From NCBI GenBank assembly GCA_963776275.1, contig CAVZMI010000005.1:54176-118175 (forward strand): DNA of 64,000 nt, written 5' to 3'. Source of the stretch: Ignavibacteriota bacterium. Lineage in GTDB: Bacteria; Bacteroidota; Ignavibacteria; UBA10030; CAVZMI01. The notes below the pieces were generated by a model. It had not been told where the DNA came from. It made no database searches and saw nothing but the letters and a program-made list of their open reading frames with translations. Both the position numbers and the translations under genes were made by a program. This document shows positions 3,582 to 44,138 of this stretch, piece after piece; the stretch's first letter is position 1; the number at the start of each line of letters is the position of its first letter.

Positions 3582-4610
3582 ATGAATAATTCATTCAAAT
3601 GCTTTCGATGGTTTGTTGTACCGATGCTGATAATTGCTCTTATGGTTGGCGGCTGTAAGAAATCATCATCGACGGGGCCAGATACAGATATTCCTACATA
3701 CCCGGTGACCGCAAAGGTTCTCGATCCGCAGGGATACCCTCTGGGCGGAGCGACACTGACGCTCTTAAATCCACCATTTGAAGATCCAAAATTCACATCG
3801 CTGACGGACTCCACGGGAAAAGCCACGATTCAATCTCCAGCCGGGCAGCAAACATTGCTTGCAAAATTCGGTACTGTATTTGAGGGAACGCTGAATGTGA
3901 CTGTTGCAGCCTCTTCGACTCCGACAATCGTGACGACACCAATTCAAGTGCATCAGAATACTAGTTTAGGAAAAGTACTTGTCGTTCTGGCAAGCGCCGA
4001 ACAACTCGAAGATGTGTTGCATGCTATCGGTTATACGACATTTGATTCAATAAGCGTCGAAGCGTTGCGCGATTCGGCGGACACAGATTCGACCAAGTTG
4101 TTGCAATATCTGAAACAATACAAGCTTATCTTCTCTGATTGCAACGGCGGCGATGAGTATCAATATCCGCTTCTTGCTCGTACCTATGGTCGCTATGTTA
4201 CCGACGGAGGAAAAATCTATGGTGGACATTATAACTACTACATCTTGCAATATATCTGGCCGCCATACTTCAAACAAAGAGATTACCAGGGTGATGTCTC
4301 GACAGATACATTGAAAATCGTCGATAATAACCTGCAGAAAGCCGTTGGCACGTACCTCGATTGGACAAAATCGGAGGATTCACGCCATCTTTCAGATTAT
4401 CAAAAGTTTTCGGATCTACCACCAGCTCCGATTTCGCATACCTATGGAGTAATCAAAGGGACTAGTCCTGAGGTCGGTGTCATCGTGGAATGCTATCCGA
4501 ATCCCAACCCTAACGGCGGTAAGTATCTCTGGACGGATTACCATAACCAGGACATCCTGAACAATACCAAACTCCTGAAAATCGTAACATACTTCTTGAA
4601 CGGAATGTAA
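3582..4610 (+). CDS. lipoprotein with carboxypeptidase-regulatory-like (beta-sandwich) N-domain and possible glutamine-amidotransferase-like C-domain
   Basis: RBS GGAGG; hydrophobic leader ending in lipobox VGGC-KKSS; AKVLDPQGYPLGGATLTL. C-domain (LIFSDC...YVTDGGKIY) call is inference. Confidence 0.7.
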   Translation: MNNSFKCFRWFVVPMLIIALMVGGCKKSSSTGPDTDIPTYPVTAKVLDPQGYPLGGATLTLLNPPFEDPKFTSLTDSTGKATIQSPAGQQTLLAKFGTVFEGTLNVTVAASSTPTIVTTPIQVHQNTSLGKVLVVLASAEQLEDVLHAIGYTTFDSISVEALRDSADTDSTKLLQYLKQYKLIFSDCNGGDEYQYPLLARTYGRYVTDGGKIYGGHYNYYILQYIWPPYFKQRDYQGDVSTDTLKIVDNNLQKAVGTYLDWTKSEDSRHLSDYQKFSDLPPAPISHTYGVIKGTSPEVGVIVECYPNPNPNGGKYLWTDYHNQDILNNTKLLKIVTYFLNGM

Positions 4611-4632: not shown

Positions 4633-4667
4633 AAAAGCCGGCATGTATAATATGTGCCGGCTTTTTT
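4633..4667 (+). terminator. rho-independent terminator (possibly bidirectional)
   Basis: AAAAGCCGGCA-loop-TGCCGGCTTTTTT just after the lipoprotein stop. Confidence 0.8.
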
Positions 4668-4670
4668 ATA

Positions 4671-4699
4671 TTGCCTAGCGTTTCATTTTTTTGTATATT
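4671..4699 (+). promoter_or_regulatory. putative sigma70 promoter of the tRNA-Thr locus
   Basis: TTGCCT-N17-TATATT, 20 bp upstream of the first tRNA-like base at 4719. Confidence 0.55.
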
Positions 4700-4718
4700 A
4701 ATAAACCTATTATCGATT

Positions 4719-4920
4719 GCTGAAGTAGCTCAGCGGTAGAGCAGTCCCGACAATTTTCTTATATGCTGGCGTAGCTCAGCGGTAGAGCAGCGGTTTCGTA
4801 AACCGCAGGTCGTCGGTTCAAATCCGACCGCCAGCTCAATGTATGAAGAGAAAATTTTCGGGATAAACCGCAGGTCGTGCCTTCCCGCTAAAGGCGGGAA
4901 GGCAAATCCCACCTTCAGCT
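4719..4920 (+). pseudogene. interrupted tRNA-Thr-like shell enclosing the intact tRNA
   Basis: Acceptor GCTGAAG (4719-4725) pairs with CTTCAGC (4913-4919). D arm GCTCAGCGGTAGAGC and TAAACCGC-AGGTC are identical to the inner tRNA. Anticodon arm and T loop are disrupted by hairpins. Confidence 0.75.
4765..4836 (+). tRNA. tRNA-Thr (anticodon CGT), CCA not encoded
   Basis: Full cloverleaf: GCTGGCG/CGCCAGC acceptor, GCTC/GAGC D stem, GCGGT-TT-CGT-AA-ACCGC anticodon arm, GTCGG-TTCAAAT-CCGAC T arm. Confidence 0.96.
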
Positions 4921-5469
4921 CAGCGGTAGAGCAGTCCCGTCCCGACGCAGTCGGGACGGGATAAACCGCAGGTCGTCGGTCCTCCGCCGCGCTTAATGAC
5001 CGGGTGAGGCGGATCCGCCGTAGGCGGAAAATCCGACCCTTCGACTCGTCCTCCTTTGTCGGACTCGCTCAGGGTAACACCGCCAGCTCAATGTATGAAG
5101 AGAAAATTTTCGGGATAAACCGCAGGTCGTGCCTTCCCGCTAAAGGCGGGAAGGCAAATCCCACCTTCAGCTCAGTGGTAGAGCAGTCCCGTCCCGACGT
5201 AGTCGGGACGGGATAAACCGCAGGTCGTCGGTTCTCCGCCGCGCTTAATGACCGGGTGAGGCGGATCCGCCGTAGGCGGAAAATCCGACCCTTCGACTCG
5301 TCCTCCTTTGTCGGACTCGCTCAGGGTAACACCGCCAGCTCAATGTATGAAGAGAAAATTTTCGGGATAAACCGCAGGTCGTGTCCGCCACTGGCGGACA
5401 AATCCCACCCTTCGACTCGTTCATCCCGCTATCGCGGGATTCACTCGCTCAGGGTGAAGCCGCCAGCTA
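4829..5469 (+). repeat. 252-bp tandem repeat (2 full units plus a divergent partial third) built from tRNA-Thr fragments and palindromes
   Basis: CGCCAGCTCAATGTATGAAGAGAAAATTTTCGGGATAAACCGCAGGTCGTG starts at 4829, 5081 and 5333. Units 1 and 2 differ at only a few bases. Confidence 0.93.
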
Positions 5470-40250: not shown

Positions 40251-40657
40251 TCGAAAAATGAGAAAAAAGCTCTTCATATTATTTAAGGAGTCAGGAGTAT
40301 CGGGAGGCAGTGGTACTGTAAAAATAAGCTCAATTAAAAAGCAAGAAAATAGCAAAATTATAATGGAAAGGCTTGAAAAACTGAAAAACAATATTAACGT
40401 CCTATATCGAGTCGGTAAACCTTGGGGATTTTCCGATTGACACCTACGATCTGTAGGGAAGCGTCACTGGAGCAGCATGTCTCTGAGTCCTTTTTTTGAT
40501 GGCAAATCCCCGAGAAAATCGTTGAAGTTTCCACGACCGAAACAACTTGCAGGCTCTATAAAGCGCCGAAATACAACACTCCCCTTTCCTATTTGCTATA
40601 AACTTGCGAACCTCCCAACCTTCAACTTTAAACTATGCTCTGGACTATTTCAGTATA

Positions 40658-41851
40658 TTATCGAAGGAGTATAAGTTTTTTCGTCTCCATAAGATTGCCC
40701 GATTCGAGTCGATAGAAATACACGCCGGTCGAAAATCCCGATGCATCCCATACTGTTTGATACGTCCCGGCATCGAATTGTGCTGACACCAGCGTTGTGA
40801 TGAGTGTTCCACACGGATCGAATATCTTCAGCGTAACAAATCCTGGTTGTGGAATCGAAAATCTGAAGGTGGTATTCGGATTAAACGGATTCGGATAATT
40901 CGCACTTAAAACAAATTCATATTTCTGCATCGAGGATGACGCTGTATCTGTGTAGCCGGAATTTCCATCCCAGCCTGCAAGCCGCGCCCATAACCACCAC
41001 GCTGCATATGCTTTACTATTGGCATTGAGCGGCTGGCTGTGAGCAGAAGAGCAGTTATACCAGTCAACGTTTACAGTATGGGAATTCTGCCATATTGTAG
41101 CCCAGTTGGCGTCAAGGTTGTGGTCGCCGTTACTGTCATAATCACAATTATCATTGGCCGAAAGCTGCATGTAATTAATCTGGCCGTCAGGATCATAGCT
41201 CTCAATATCGGCAAAATCAAATAATATTTTATTATTGCCGGTACAGTAATTTCTAATCTGTTGATTGCGAAGATTGACATTCCCCGAAGTCCCCGTCCCG
41301 TTTAAATGACCTGTCATGTAAACAAACTTTATATTAGGATAATCATGTTCCAACCCAGACATAAGGTTCAAATAGAGGTTTATATCTGATTCCGTTCCAT
41401 CCACCTGGCCACACCATGACCAGATAATTACATTGATCTCCGGGTGTGCATTTAAATAAGTCCTTGTTGAGGCTTCCCATGCTGTGCGATTAGGGTTTCC
41501 GAGATCGCTTGCTCCGCTGAAAGGTCCGTCTTTGAGATCCAACGCGCCATTTGTTCCCCCGTTGTTGAAGGCATAGAGATTTTGAGGATATCCTAAGCCG
41601 TTCATGAAAGCTACTAGGCTACTCATTCCATCAATGAGTTGACTGCCATGAGAAGTGTGTCCGTATGCAATGTGAAGAGTGGATTTAGCCTGGGAAATAT
41701 ATTGTAGCGGTATCTCGCTTATCTTTGTACATGTATGGTCGGCTATGATAGGGCCGGCTATTAGAGTGAATGGTAAAAATAACGCTATCGTTAACAGAGT
41801 CATTAGACTCATATCCGTTTTTAGGGTGTCTGGTTTCATGATGCATTCCAT
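40658..41851 (-). CDS. secreted protein (IAYGHTSHGSQ domain, possibly SGNH-like) with T9SS domain
   Basis: Signal peptide; HIAYGHTSHGSQ, WSWCGQ, YMTGH, FDFADIESYDPDG; ANYPNPFNP C-terminal domain. Confidence 0.8.
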   Translation of the reverse strand: MECIMKPDTLKTDMSLMTLLTIALFLPFTLIAGPIIADHTCTKISEIPLQYISQAKSTLHIAYGHTSHGSQLIDGMSSLVAFMNGLGYPQNLYAFNNGGTNGALDLKDGPFSGASDLGNPNRTAWEASTRTYLNAHPEINVIIWSWCGQVDGTESDINLYLNLMSGLEHDYPNIKFVYMTGHLNGTGTSGNVNLRNQQIRNYCTGNNKILFDFADIESYDPDGQINYMQLSANDNCDYDSNGDHNLDANWATIWQNSHTVNVDWYNCSSAHSQPLNANSKAYAAWWLWARLAGWDGNSGYTDTASSSMQKYEFVLSANYPNPFNPNTTFRFSIPQPGFVTLKIFDPCGTLITTLVSAQFDAGTYQTVWDASGFSTGVYFYRLESGNLMETKKLILLR

Positions 41852-41856
41852 TTAAA

Positions 41857-44138
41857 TCATTTTACGACTACCAGCCTCATCGTTTTCGTGTAAGATCTGG
41901 ATTCCATACTGCGATTACCGGCCGGTGCCGTCGATAAAGCGGACAATCTATAGAAATAAATGCCGCTCGAAATACCCTCCGCATTCCACTGGCGCGAGAA
42001 ATAGCCCGCCTGAAGTTCTTCCGATACGACGGTCGTCACTTCTCTGCCCGTGACATCGAAAATTTTTAACGTCACGAAAGAAGGAGCCGGAAGGCCGAAT
42101 CGTATGGTTGTCGACGGATTAAAGGGATTAGGATAATTCTGGCCGAGTGTGTACTCGAATGGAATATTACCGCTGTTTCCGCTCATTTGGGTTGGAACGG
42201 TATTGATGTGATAAATGTGTACGGCATTTTTCCAAAATGTATCCTGAAATTGGCCGTCCACCACCGGAATGGTTCGTGCTCTCATCGATGATATCCGCCT
42301 CCATGGTACCGACGAGGTTGCTTACCGATACGTTGACTTGTATCAGCTCGGGTTCGATGCCGGTATAATTTGTACCGGGTATCGGATCGGGTTCGGTAAT
42401 GCGGGCGGCGAAAATATAGACATCGGTTCCACTCTCGCGTATCATCAAGTCGACTCGTTTAAGCGGAATATTTGCATCATCGGAAGCGGTGCGCGAGGGT
42501 TCGGGACTAAGAACAACTGGAGCCAGTATCTCCATCTGATCGGCGAATTTTTTCATGGCGGGCCATCGTATCGAGCTATATACAAAGTAGGGGAACCAGT
42601 TGATTCCCTTAGCGCCGTGGATGACGTTCATCCATGCTTCGAGGTACACCTGTTCTGCCGTAACCGGCGGTGTGTTGTCACCCTCGGTCTCTTCACACAC
42701 CTGCAGCGCCGGGATACAGGGCACAAGTTTTTTATTGTTCGTCTGCATTCGATCCAGAGCGTCGAGGTAGGCAGAATACGGACCCATGTCGGTGTAATTC
42801 AGTGTCGGATGCAGCCGGTATTGGATCGGGTAAATATCGCCGCCGATGACATCCTCGGTTCATTTCTTTCCACCGAAAAATTTATCACTCTGGAGATAAT
42901 CGTACAGTCGCAGACCCGTTCCATAATACTTCAACCAATCGTAGCAGGCCAGTTCATTGTAATGTGGATGTTGGGGATCCTCACGATGACTGACGTACTG
43001 CCATGCAGCTAACACGGGCTGATAGGCTTTTTGCGGCCAACCTCCCAGATTCGGTTCGTCTTCCCAGCTCCACATCAACAGCGCCGGACTATCGCGGTTT
43101 GCCCTTATATATTCCGCCATCCTGTTGATGTCGTGGTTGAATTCCTGACGGCGTGGTTCGACTTCTCCCCAGTCATAATCGCCGCGAGTCGGACCGATGC
43201 ACATCAGTCCTTTGGCCGCAGCCTTATTGAGATAGTCCGTCCACGTTGAAACGCTGTGCGAAGGATACCATCCCTCGGTATGCAGCGAGTTGATCGATGA
43301 CGAGTCGAGATATTTCTGGACATTATCGTTATCGGTCATGTAGGTCATAATCGGAAAGAAAAGTTGTCCGTTCACACGAATAGCATTATTTTCGTCGATG
43401 CCGACCTGCGGTACGCCCGGGTATCGTTTGGAAAATTTATCGTGCCATAAGCCTCCGGGTAGTCGCTGACCATCCGCATCGAGGAGTTCTGCAATCACCA
43501 CATAGTCGCCCTGGGCAAGTTGTTTCTGATCGAACAGAATTATTTCCTCGGAGGCTAAAACGGATTTCGAAAAAATTATTGTTGATTGTTCTCCCGGTTC
43601 CGCCAGTGTTACGCGAAGTGTGGTTTGATTTCCCTGGCAGGATGGAGGAATTACTGCATAGAGATATTGTGCCAGACGCACATGGAACGGGGCATGGAGG
43701 AGTTCGAAGCCCGTCATCGGTGCTTCGCCCGTCACGGTGATGAATTTCGTAACGGAATCTTTTGCGATTGGAGTGTCCTGTCGGATTTCCTTCACCGTCG
43801 AAATCATTATACATCGATACTATCAATTTTACGGCGAATGTTCCTGGTTTCATGAAGTAATGCACACACGCTAATCCTGAACATGCGGTATAGTAGTAAG
43901 GAAATCCGAACCTGAACGAGTATCCGTCGTCAAAGTCCCACTCATACCGCGCTTTTCTCAGGAGCGTTACGTCTCCCTGGTATGTTGTGCTGTCGGCACT
44001 GAAAAAGACTTCCTCGCCGACATCCACGTTCGTGCCCGGTTGAGTCGATATCACAGGACTCAATCCCTGTGAAAATATCATACCGGAAACCGATACCAAA
44101 AGAATTGTTAAAGCAATCAGCCGCATTTTATCTGTCAT
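41857..44138 (-). pseudogene. secreted PKD-domain + glycoside-hydrolase-like (TIM barrel) + T9SS protein with three lesions
   Basis: Four ORF pieces join after removing 1 nt near 43776, reading through TGA at 42860-42862 and removing 1 nt near 42277. YEWDFDDG PKD motif, WSWEDEP, GDIYPI, IHGAKGINWF, QNYPNPFNP. Confidence 0.75.

Follow-up and report, generated by a model that had tools for sequence, protein, structure and literature searches.

The 64,000-nucleotide stretch of DNA analyzed here (referred to as the window; contig CAVZMI010000005.1, positions 54,176 to 118,175) originates from the genome of an Ignavibacteriota bacterium (GenBank assembly GCA_963776275.1) and contains, at positions 4719–4920, a tRNA gene residing within another tRNA gene: a complete tRNA-Thr(CGT) is enclosed by the broken remains of a second, tRNA-Thr-like sequence. 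Comparison with related genomes showed that this nest very probably represents the replacement of a resident gene at the DNA level, the resident gene having been interrupted by a short cassette with hairpin arms that brings along its own tRNA. The genome of the window (G000) was available as 38 contigs (96% complete, 5.3% contamination) and was compared, among others, with a genome of the same genus (G001) and with one of another genus of the same family (G002).

The outer sequence, in the following termed the shell, spans the whole nest and provides the two strands of a 7-bp acceptor stem (GCTGAAG, 4719–4725, and CTTCAGC, 4913–4919) as well as the discriminator T at position 4920, its D arm being identical to that of the inner gene. 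A 119-bp cassette (4745–4863) sits in place of shell positions 28–35, which in an intact tRNA provide the anticodon stem with its 5′ strand and the loop with its first bases. It is composed, in this order, of a left arm (TCCCGACAATTTTCT, 4745–4759; core TCCCGAC plus extension), the complete tRNA-Thr(CGT) (4765–4836) with the acceptor strand GCTGGCG (B-type, as opposed to the A-type GCTGAAG of the shell), a short trailer of 12 nt (4837–4848), and a complementary right arm (AGAAAATTTTCGGGA, 4849–4863), 14 of the 15 arm positions being paired. The right arm ends in TCGGGA, directly abutting tRNA position 36, and is followed by TAAACCGC-AGGTC (4864–4876). Accordingly divided, the 5′ part of the shell (4719–4744) comprises the acceptor 5′ strand, the D arm and position 27, and the 3′ part (4864–4920) comprises positions 36–76 of the old tRNA. 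Its T arm reads GTG, a 23-nt hairpin (4880–4902) standing in for the T-loop bases GGTT, and CAAATCCCAC. The shell, the cassette, the downstream units, and the promoter- and terminator-like sites described below are all located on the plus strand. An earlier, sequence-only reading of the window had reported the acceptor stem, the D arm, the 3′ anticodon strand and the AGGTC of the shell, together with an inverted repeat around a complete tRNA-Thr with other acceptor and T stems; all of these were recovered. The shell T stem that it described was recovered too; in addition, the shell T loop proved to be destroyed by the 23-nt hairpin.

Analysis of the region by means of ARAGORN resulted in a call for the inner gene alone (tRNA-Thr(cgt), 4765–4837). 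With 74 bits for the Rfam family RF00005 (gathering score, 29) and a consistent anticodon, this gene qualifies as a functional tRNA gene; of the 46 tRNAs detected genome-wide by ARAGORN, no other is a tRNA-Thr(CGT). The shell was called neither by ARAGORN nor by Rfam, be it at gathering thresholds or at E ≤ 10, and beyond the inner tRNA the Rfam searches at both settings returned chance-level matches only. The cloverleaf of the shell is incomplete: the 7-bp acceptor stem and the D arm are kept, and positions 28–35 and the T-loop GGTT are gone. A group I tRNA intron was also considered and rejected, as no intron family was found at E ≤ 10 and joining positions 4744 and 4864 would leave a tRNA without positions 28–35.

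At the orthologous site, G001 harbors an intact GCTGAAG-type tRNA-Thr(CGT) scoring 76 bits, with flanks colinear to the window (95.4% and 88.8% identical). The 60 bases that the shell still possesses (26 in the 5′ part and 16 + 18 in the 3′ part) all agree with the G001 gene; just CGGTTTCG (positions 28–35) and the T-loop GGTT are replaced, and the T-loop hairpin is absent from G001. An intact gene of the GCTGAAG type was also detected in G002, so that the lineage does possess this type, the absence of which had been named as an observation that would speak against an interrupted resident gene. Since the missing eight and four bases could not be regenerated by deletion, the nest is the derived state. 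Judged by these comparisons, the shell is a dead gene, formerly the native A-type tRNA-Thr(CGT) of the lineage, and would give rise to no second RNA product. The earlier proposal that the resident tRNA was disrupted by a hairpin element carrying a working substitute is thus supported by the intact G001 allele, by the inner gene being the sole tRNA-Thr(CGT), and by the recurrence of the structure with the same borders (see below). Its alternative, namely that a precursor containing two acceptor stems, one nested in the other, is processed in an unusual way, found no support, the shell lacking the 5′ anticodon strand and the T loop, and its decay varying from genome to genome. For annotation purposes, the shell and the units downstream of it are pseudogenes, and of these sequences only 4765–4836 is a tRNA gene.

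To evaluate the prevalence of such nests, the left junction, consisting of GGTAGAGCAG directly followed by TCCCGA (≤1 mismatch), was searched for in 277 genomes of the order. It was found at 51 places in 45 genomes, representing 35 out of 110 genera and seven out of nine families, as compared to eight places for the reversed control pattern. In total, 44 of the 51 places were examined, and 15 of them were clean nests, defined by an arm length of 11 nt or more, a span between 111 and 226 nt and an intact tRNA-Thr(CGT or TGT) inside. Eight more featured an intact tRNA-Thr after the junction without a clear right arm, three were closed hairpins, and the remainder were degenerate or chance matches. 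The right border recurred likewise, in that 13 of the 15 clean nests continue after the right arm with TAA and then the anticodon 3′ strand (the exceptions being L163, TTG, and L180, TGA). Nests with other left borders were recognized by eye in G017, G012 (two layers) and G010, and a second nest in the window genome itself, involving its own tRNA-Thr(TGT), was seen in the same way.

The distribution of the nests among close relatives is patchy. A nest is present in G000 and not in G001, and in genus g56 the junction was found in 7 out of 17 genomes, both states occurring there. In another family, G104 and G114 show a row resembling that of G001, namely an intact A-type gene followed by pseudo-copies fused at AGCT/CAG, and G105 and G109 show the nest. 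Across genomes, the shells range from nearly intact (T arm kept) to unrecognizable. Arms of the type TCCCGA[CT]AA enclose a B-type inner gene in seven out of eight cases, and arms of the type TCCCGA[TC]G[CT] an A-type inner gene in six out of seven, the related genomes among these not being independent; arms and cargo travel together, the arms falling into two lineages. The approximately 47 informative cassette bases outside the tRNA are too few for a comparison of cassette and host trees.

Outside the order, the D-arm/TCCCGAC junction was found to adjoin tRNA-Lys, tRNA-Thr and tRNA-Ala genes in assemblies assigned, by their record titles, to Patescibacteria, Gammaproteobacteria and Bacteroidota/Ignavibacteria-type organisms. 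At four loci of other phyla, a Pfam-confirmed GIY-YIG open reading frame (ORF) is located 41–186 nt from this junction. An exact 17-mer scan of all species genomes yielded 90 stretches, compared to an estimated 69 or so expected by chance, and inspection placed about 28 of the 90 in a tRNA context; being close to the chance estimate, the raw count is no evidence by itself.

At its 3′ side, the nest continues into further tRNA-Thr wrecks, with which it forms an array of 750 nt (4719–5468); the nest described by the sequence-only reading makes up just the first 200 nt of this array. A unit of 252 nt, starting at position 4827, is present in 2.5 copies as assembled, namely 4827–5078, 5079–5330 (family D1, 99% identical to the first) and a partial third copy (5331–5468) that ends in a chimeric T arm and an acceptor 3′ strand with two more hairpins. 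A metagenome contig (X1 record 6) shows a shorter array, so that the number of units given here is provisional. In each unit, trailer and right arm are accompanied by the 3′ shell part and by another pseudo-copy of tRNA-Thr, in which a closed hairpin stands for positions 28–35 and extra hairpins lie within and after the T loop. The trailer is part of a 53-nt block (family D2) present in three copies at 100% identity. The first pseudo-copy (4921–5088, B-type) is fused to the 3′ end of the shell at AGCT/CAG, has its closed hairpin at 4935–4961, and is additionally interrupted by an insert of approximately 47 nt with two hairpins in the T loop and by another one preceding the acceptor 3′ strand. 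Its counterpart in G001 is without the T-loop insert, and the AGCT/CAG fusion together with the closed hairpin is also found in G104 and G114.

The insert of approximately 47 nt lies between GGTTC and AAATCC of the T loop at 4983–5029 and 5235–5281 of the window. Homologous two-hairpin inserts were detected at the same T-loop spot on contigs C21 (tRNA-Pro GGG) and C37 (tRNA-Ser GGA) of G000 and at loci L012 and L020, the hosts being dead copies of different tRNA isotypes, in other families too. It looks like a T-loop-specific insertion element.

Damage of this kind extends across the genome. Exact self-fragments of at least 11 nt were found within 1.2 kb of 22 out of 46 tRNA genes, some of them in neighboring tRNA genes, and inspection revealed hairpin-bearing partial copies at approximately 17 of the 46 loci (Thr-CGT, Thr-TGT, three Ser, two Met, three Gly, Leu-TAA, two Pro, two Val, Lys-CTT and Asn), the hairpins replacing or filling the D, anticodon or T loop. 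Among the 2837 perfect hairpins of the genome with a stem of at least seven, those starting with TCCCG form the top class (51). Non-overlapping TCCCG or TCCGCC hairpins amount to 145 and are thus present in many copies, as is characteristic of the Ssn/SRM system discussed below; 31 of them have a tRNA or GIY-YIG gene at a distance of up to 1.5 kb, and 114 lie farther away. When all tRNA loci of G000 and G001 were compared, clean loci proved to be colinear at 95–97% and cassette loci were rearranged. At tRNA-Asn, for instance, G000 possesses a 95-nt unit that combines a pseudo-5′ copy with two hairpins and a spacer; in G001, the identical flanks enclose no such unit.

Two further loci of G000 were observed in this context. 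Upstream of tRNA-Gly(GCC) on C18 (93,425–93,854), five tandem units of 86 nt, in two alternating variants, each contain a tRNA 5′ part with the closed hairpin GTCCCGATGAAATCGGGAC for the 5′ side of the anticodon arm. On C27 (approximately 77,650–78,100, L003, minus strand), a second partial 5S rRNA 3′ end with its own terminator is located behind the first terminator. This copy is interrupted by several hairpins, and CCCTTCGACTCG...CTCGCTCAGGG is shared with the tRNA-Thr pseudo-copies at 5037–5078 and 5408–5455 of the window; hairpin-marked partial duplication is therefore not confined to tRNA genes.

Thirteen small GIY-YIG (PF01541) ORFs were identified in the genome, eight of them within 400 nt of a tRNA gene. 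Those adjacent to tRNA genes typically lie between a pseudo-5′ copy and the intact gene, sibling cassettes carrying them. Four of the small GIY-YIG proteins were compared with NCBIfam, in which no family passed its cut-off, and PDB sequence searches gave weak matches only, to UPF0213 (the best, with E about 3e-3) and SLX1. On C10 of G000 (40,586–41,990), tRNA-Met is followed by four tandem units of 349 nt. In each of them, a small GIY-YIG ORF merges at its 3′ end with a copy of tRNA-Met in which the D loop has given way to a 15-nt hairpin. Much longer arrays of small GIY-YIG genes, with a period of about 300 nt, comprise 14 copies in G112 and seven in G097. Among 120 loci of many phyla with exact Neisseria-type NTS copies, the ORF at L242 (4362–4882) was the sole match to nine G000 GIY-YIG frames, no independent GIY-YIG search of these loci having been made; it lies between two convergent NTS copies and thus has the NTS-nuclease-NTS layout of the Ssn paper.

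With respect to the surroundings of the locus, the sequence-only reading had described a gpsA-tRNA-gdhA arrangement. The gene gdhA indeed flanks the locus on the other side, but the gene directly upstream is an ORF of 342 aa (3582–4610), gpsA being one gene further up. This ORF has no Pfam family at E ≤ 1e-5, shows approximately 95% DNA identity in G001, and is followed by a terminator-like hairpin (4633–4665) with a 15-pair stem and a T run. Between this hairpin and the shell, a promoter-like site of the old shell tRNA gene (TTGCCT-17-TATATT, 4671–4699) is the sole such site upstream of the inner tRNA, in a region conserved in G001.

The explanation that probably accounts best for these observations as a whole is that a DNA cassette broke the native gene and supplies its replacement, within a turnover of tRNA genes by nuclease action and recombination. 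The cassette itself appears to be a nuclease-less member of a hairpin-marked family that turns over tRNA genes and whose relatives carry a small GIY-YIG gene. In this process, the cassette would have replaced positions 28–35 of the native A-type gene. Since the cassette has no room for a promoter and only 20 nt lie between the 5′ part of the shell and the start of the inner tRNA, the inner gene presumably uses the promoter of the old gene, and ordinary tRNA-processing enzymes would cut the inner tRNA from the precursor. The inner copy being the sole tRNA-Thr(CGT) found, the cell depends on the cassette copy, and this dependence would free the shell to decay and to gather hairpin inserts.

As for the mode of action, we tentatively suggest a nuclease-and-recombination mechanism. 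The two arms may be the halves of a nuclease-binding hairpin, and small hairpin-binding GIY-YIG nucleases encoded elsewhere in the genome may nick single-stranded DNA at such hairpins. SsnA of Neisseria has been described to bind hairpins of this kind solely as single-stranded DNA and to cut a few nucleotides upstream, and SsnA-type nucleases also cut when the hairpin halves are on separate strands (PMC11893778). Repair or recombination could then proceed via invariant tRNA segments as short homology, namely the end of the D arm, positions 36–48, the T loop, and the 3′ end plus trailer (AGCTCA), which would explain why the junctions are located at the D-arm end, position 36, the T loop and AGCTCA. 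Only products with one intact tRNA would survive, leaving nests and rows of wrecks around a single live gene.

Several observations weigh against this explanation. No nuclease gene is present in the cassette (4745–4863) or on the contig of the window. In family f9, small GIY-YIG genes occur in 86 of 86 genomes, with a median of seven matches in the 21 junction-positive genomes and six overall, and G095 has a junction with just one PF01541 match; given this ubiquity, the presence of the nuclease does not track nests, and the comparison has no discriminating power. Moreover, four out of nine G000 frames match the NTS-flanked GIY-YIG ORF (E 1e-9 to 2e-5), none of these four being tRNA-adjacent, and neither this comparison nor the family and PDB searches placed the tRNA-adjacent nucleases in the Ssn family. 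A near-identical second copy of the cassette was not found in the genome, the nearest sequence being the tRNA-Thr(TGT) nest with 78% over 112 nt, and the arms differ between genomes, so that there is no direct trace of recent movement or horizontal transfer. At tRNA-Asn, the direction of the change (gain or loss) is ambiguous, as the gene would also be restored by a deletion between the direct repeats. Complementary arms of varying sequence would also fit selection on an RNA helix, and in an assembly of 38 contigs with 5.3% contamination, the copy number of repeats is to be taken as assembled.

The last-mentioned features bear on two of the other explanations. If the nest were a functional RNA design, the arms would form a leader-trailer helix guiding the processing of the inner tRNA, or, once the inner tRNA has been cut out, the shell pieces would stay paired as a two-piece, anticodon-less tRNA-like RNA with its own function. 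The region 4719–4920 does fold into the nested structure (−92.6 kcal/mol, compared to a shuffle mean of −57.95; z = −8.1, 0/200 as good), the complementarity of the arms is kept while their sequence varies (188 of 199 pairs across genomes being Watson-Crick), the acceptor stem, D arm and T arm of the shell are intact in L153, L168, L173, L185 and L163, and the inserts are found in loops, not in stems. However, the state of the shell varies from intact to unrecognizable across genomes, the sister species G001 has a normal gene and no nest, and the leftover anticodon 3′ strand of the shell is without a partner. There is also no excess of wobble pairs (one G.T versus four C.A among 11 arm mismatches, these being small numbers from related genomes), the same hairpins are dispersed away from tRNAs (114/145 more than 1.5 kb from a tRNA or GIY-YIG gene), and SsnA-type proteins have been described not to bind RNA (PMC11893778). 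An RNA design is consequently considered unlikely. A mis-join of tRNA-like repeats within a metagenome-assembled genome could be suspected from the number of contigs and the contamination value, and a 21-kb metagenome contig ends exactly at the border of shell and arm. Yet DNA contigs from two other public runs, stemming from two other studies, bridge the shell, the left arm and the inner tRNA in relatives (X1 record 2, 4718–4800; X2 record 7, 4718–4793), by which an artefact is excluded for the left junction, and dozens of independent assemblies, among them the single-contig G109, show this architecture with identical borders. The probability of an artefact is hence regarded as negligible.

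Accretion of integrase-mediated islands or prophages at the tRNA gene, with att duplications and later deletion (CIME-like), would draw on a familiar process. The anticodon loop is the crossover site of one integrase class, and a 15-nt direct repeat common to the inner gene and the shell starts in this loop. Furthermore, tRNA genes are classic integration sites at which partial 3′ copies are left behind (PMC9897764). The 119-bp cassette, on the other hand, contains neither an integrase gene nor any ORF, and no hybrid of host and element is seen, the inner tRNA being a complete gene that has a 5′ end of its own and stems unlike those of the shell. In addition, duplication also affects 5′ fragments, each of the two junctions is formed by complementary hairpin arms, and eight bases were replaced without any being duplicated. 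These hairpins moreover take the place of D, anticodon and T loops in tRNAs of many types; we regard an integrase origin as highly improbable. Hardly more credible is a host-run switch in which silent, hairpin-tagged tRNA pieces would serve as gene-conversion donors to alternate A-type and B-type tRNA-Thr, for example to escape a toxin or phage factor. A-type and B-type do alternate as shell and inner gene, differing in 9–10 of the 13 nests readable for both, both arrangements recur in two families, and the rows of partial copies resemble silent-cassette arrays. However, there is no evidence of a selective agent, and the partial copies are full of inserts that would be copied along. As the same wrecks are present at approximately 17 tRNA loci of many isotypes and at the 5S rRNA, collateral or selfish damage fits better than a dedicated switch.

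The preferred explanation, a cassette that breaks the native gene and supplies its replacement, can also be set against known systems, none of which is matched by the nest in its full set of defining features. The Ssn/SRM system (Chenal et al. 2025, PMC11893778) is similar in having GC-rich hairpin repeats of 20–50 nt in many copies (with the core TTCCCGC...GCGGGAA there, and TCCCGAC...GTCGGGA as well as TTCCCGC...GCGGGAA here) and small single-domain GIY-YIG genes, some of them flanked by hairpins. As described there, the repeats surround protein genes and modulate transformation, whereas those of the present study replace tRNA loops and stand on either side of a substitute tRNA; in its main text, that paper mentions tRNA zero times. 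In the tRNA-dependent lysogeny of actinobacteriophages (Guerrero-Bustamante and Hatfull 2024, PMC10865867), the incoming element is likewise described to destroy a host tRNA gene without rebuilding it and to complement it by a tRNA sharing its isotype, so that the host depends on the element. That element, however, is a whole phage with a tyrosine integrase and an att core of about 10 bp, whereas the cassette is 119 bp long, encodes no protein, has hairpin arms, forms nested layers and makes use of the promoter of the broken gene. Free-standing GIY-YIG homing genes, for example SegB within the tRNA gene cluster of phage T4 (PMC2330249), also combine a nuclease tied to tRNA genes with filled and empty alleles and an expected spread by repair and recombination, and in the present case too, a filled (G000) and an empty (G001) allele exist at one site. 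The Seg proteins are described as larger and as cutting double-stranded DNA of the empty allele, neither tRNA splitting nor a spare copy being part of that account, and the cassette differs from homing-endonuclease elements in that it contains no nuclease gene. With integrative islands and prophages that restore the 3′ part of a tRNA (PMC9897764), the locus has in common the partial tRNA copies beside a live gene, but it shows no integrase and no hybrid tRNA, 5′ fragments are also duplicated, and its junctions are hairpins.

A further comparison concerns short dispersed elements. In REP/BIME/REPIN and MITE elements, short GC-rich palindromes, sometimes nested or doubled, are dispersed between genes in many copies and carry no cargo, a small nuclease or a transposase being presumed to move them in trans. 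The cassette differs from them in that its hairpin halves enclose a complete essential gene, in its fixed positions within the tRNA gene, and in the lack of a target-site duplication. Of the features of a MITE or a transposon with terminal inverted repeats, the inverted repeats are present (14/15), but target-site duplications and near-identical copies are not.

In a full-text literature search, neither tRNA-in-tRNA nests nor hairpin/GIY-YIG cassettes located at tRNA genes of bacteria were found to have been described, and the author of the earlier reading likewise knew of no such arrangement, although the supplements of the Ssn paper might list tRNA-adjacent repeats. Cassette turnover of bacterial tRNA genes is apparently both widespread and undescribed. 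More speculatively, and with considerable doubt, the observations could reflect a natural 'break-and-rescue' drive at the tRNA genes of many phyla, in which cassettes of about 120 bp, consisting of a tRNA between the halves of a nuclease-binding hairpin, would overwrite the resident gene and impose dependence on themselves. At the tRNA-Thr genes of the order, the arm lineages TCCCGA[CT]AA with B-type and TCCCGA[TC]G[CT] with A-type genes would overwrite each other, resulting in Russian-doll nests and rows of wrecks, and GIY-YIG single-strand nucleases would make the breaks in trans.

If the proposed turnover holds true, the cassette would be about the smallest self-perpetuating cassette known to us, its only cargo being the essential gene that it has just destroyed. 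It would link the newly described hairpins and Ssn-type nucleases to a concrete genomic activity, and would explain the tRNA fragments that confuse annotation at tRNA loci of several phyla. It would also predict that acceptor and T stems can be swapped between lineages with decoding left unchanged, and would provide natural, very compact sites and arms for gene insertion at tRNA loci.

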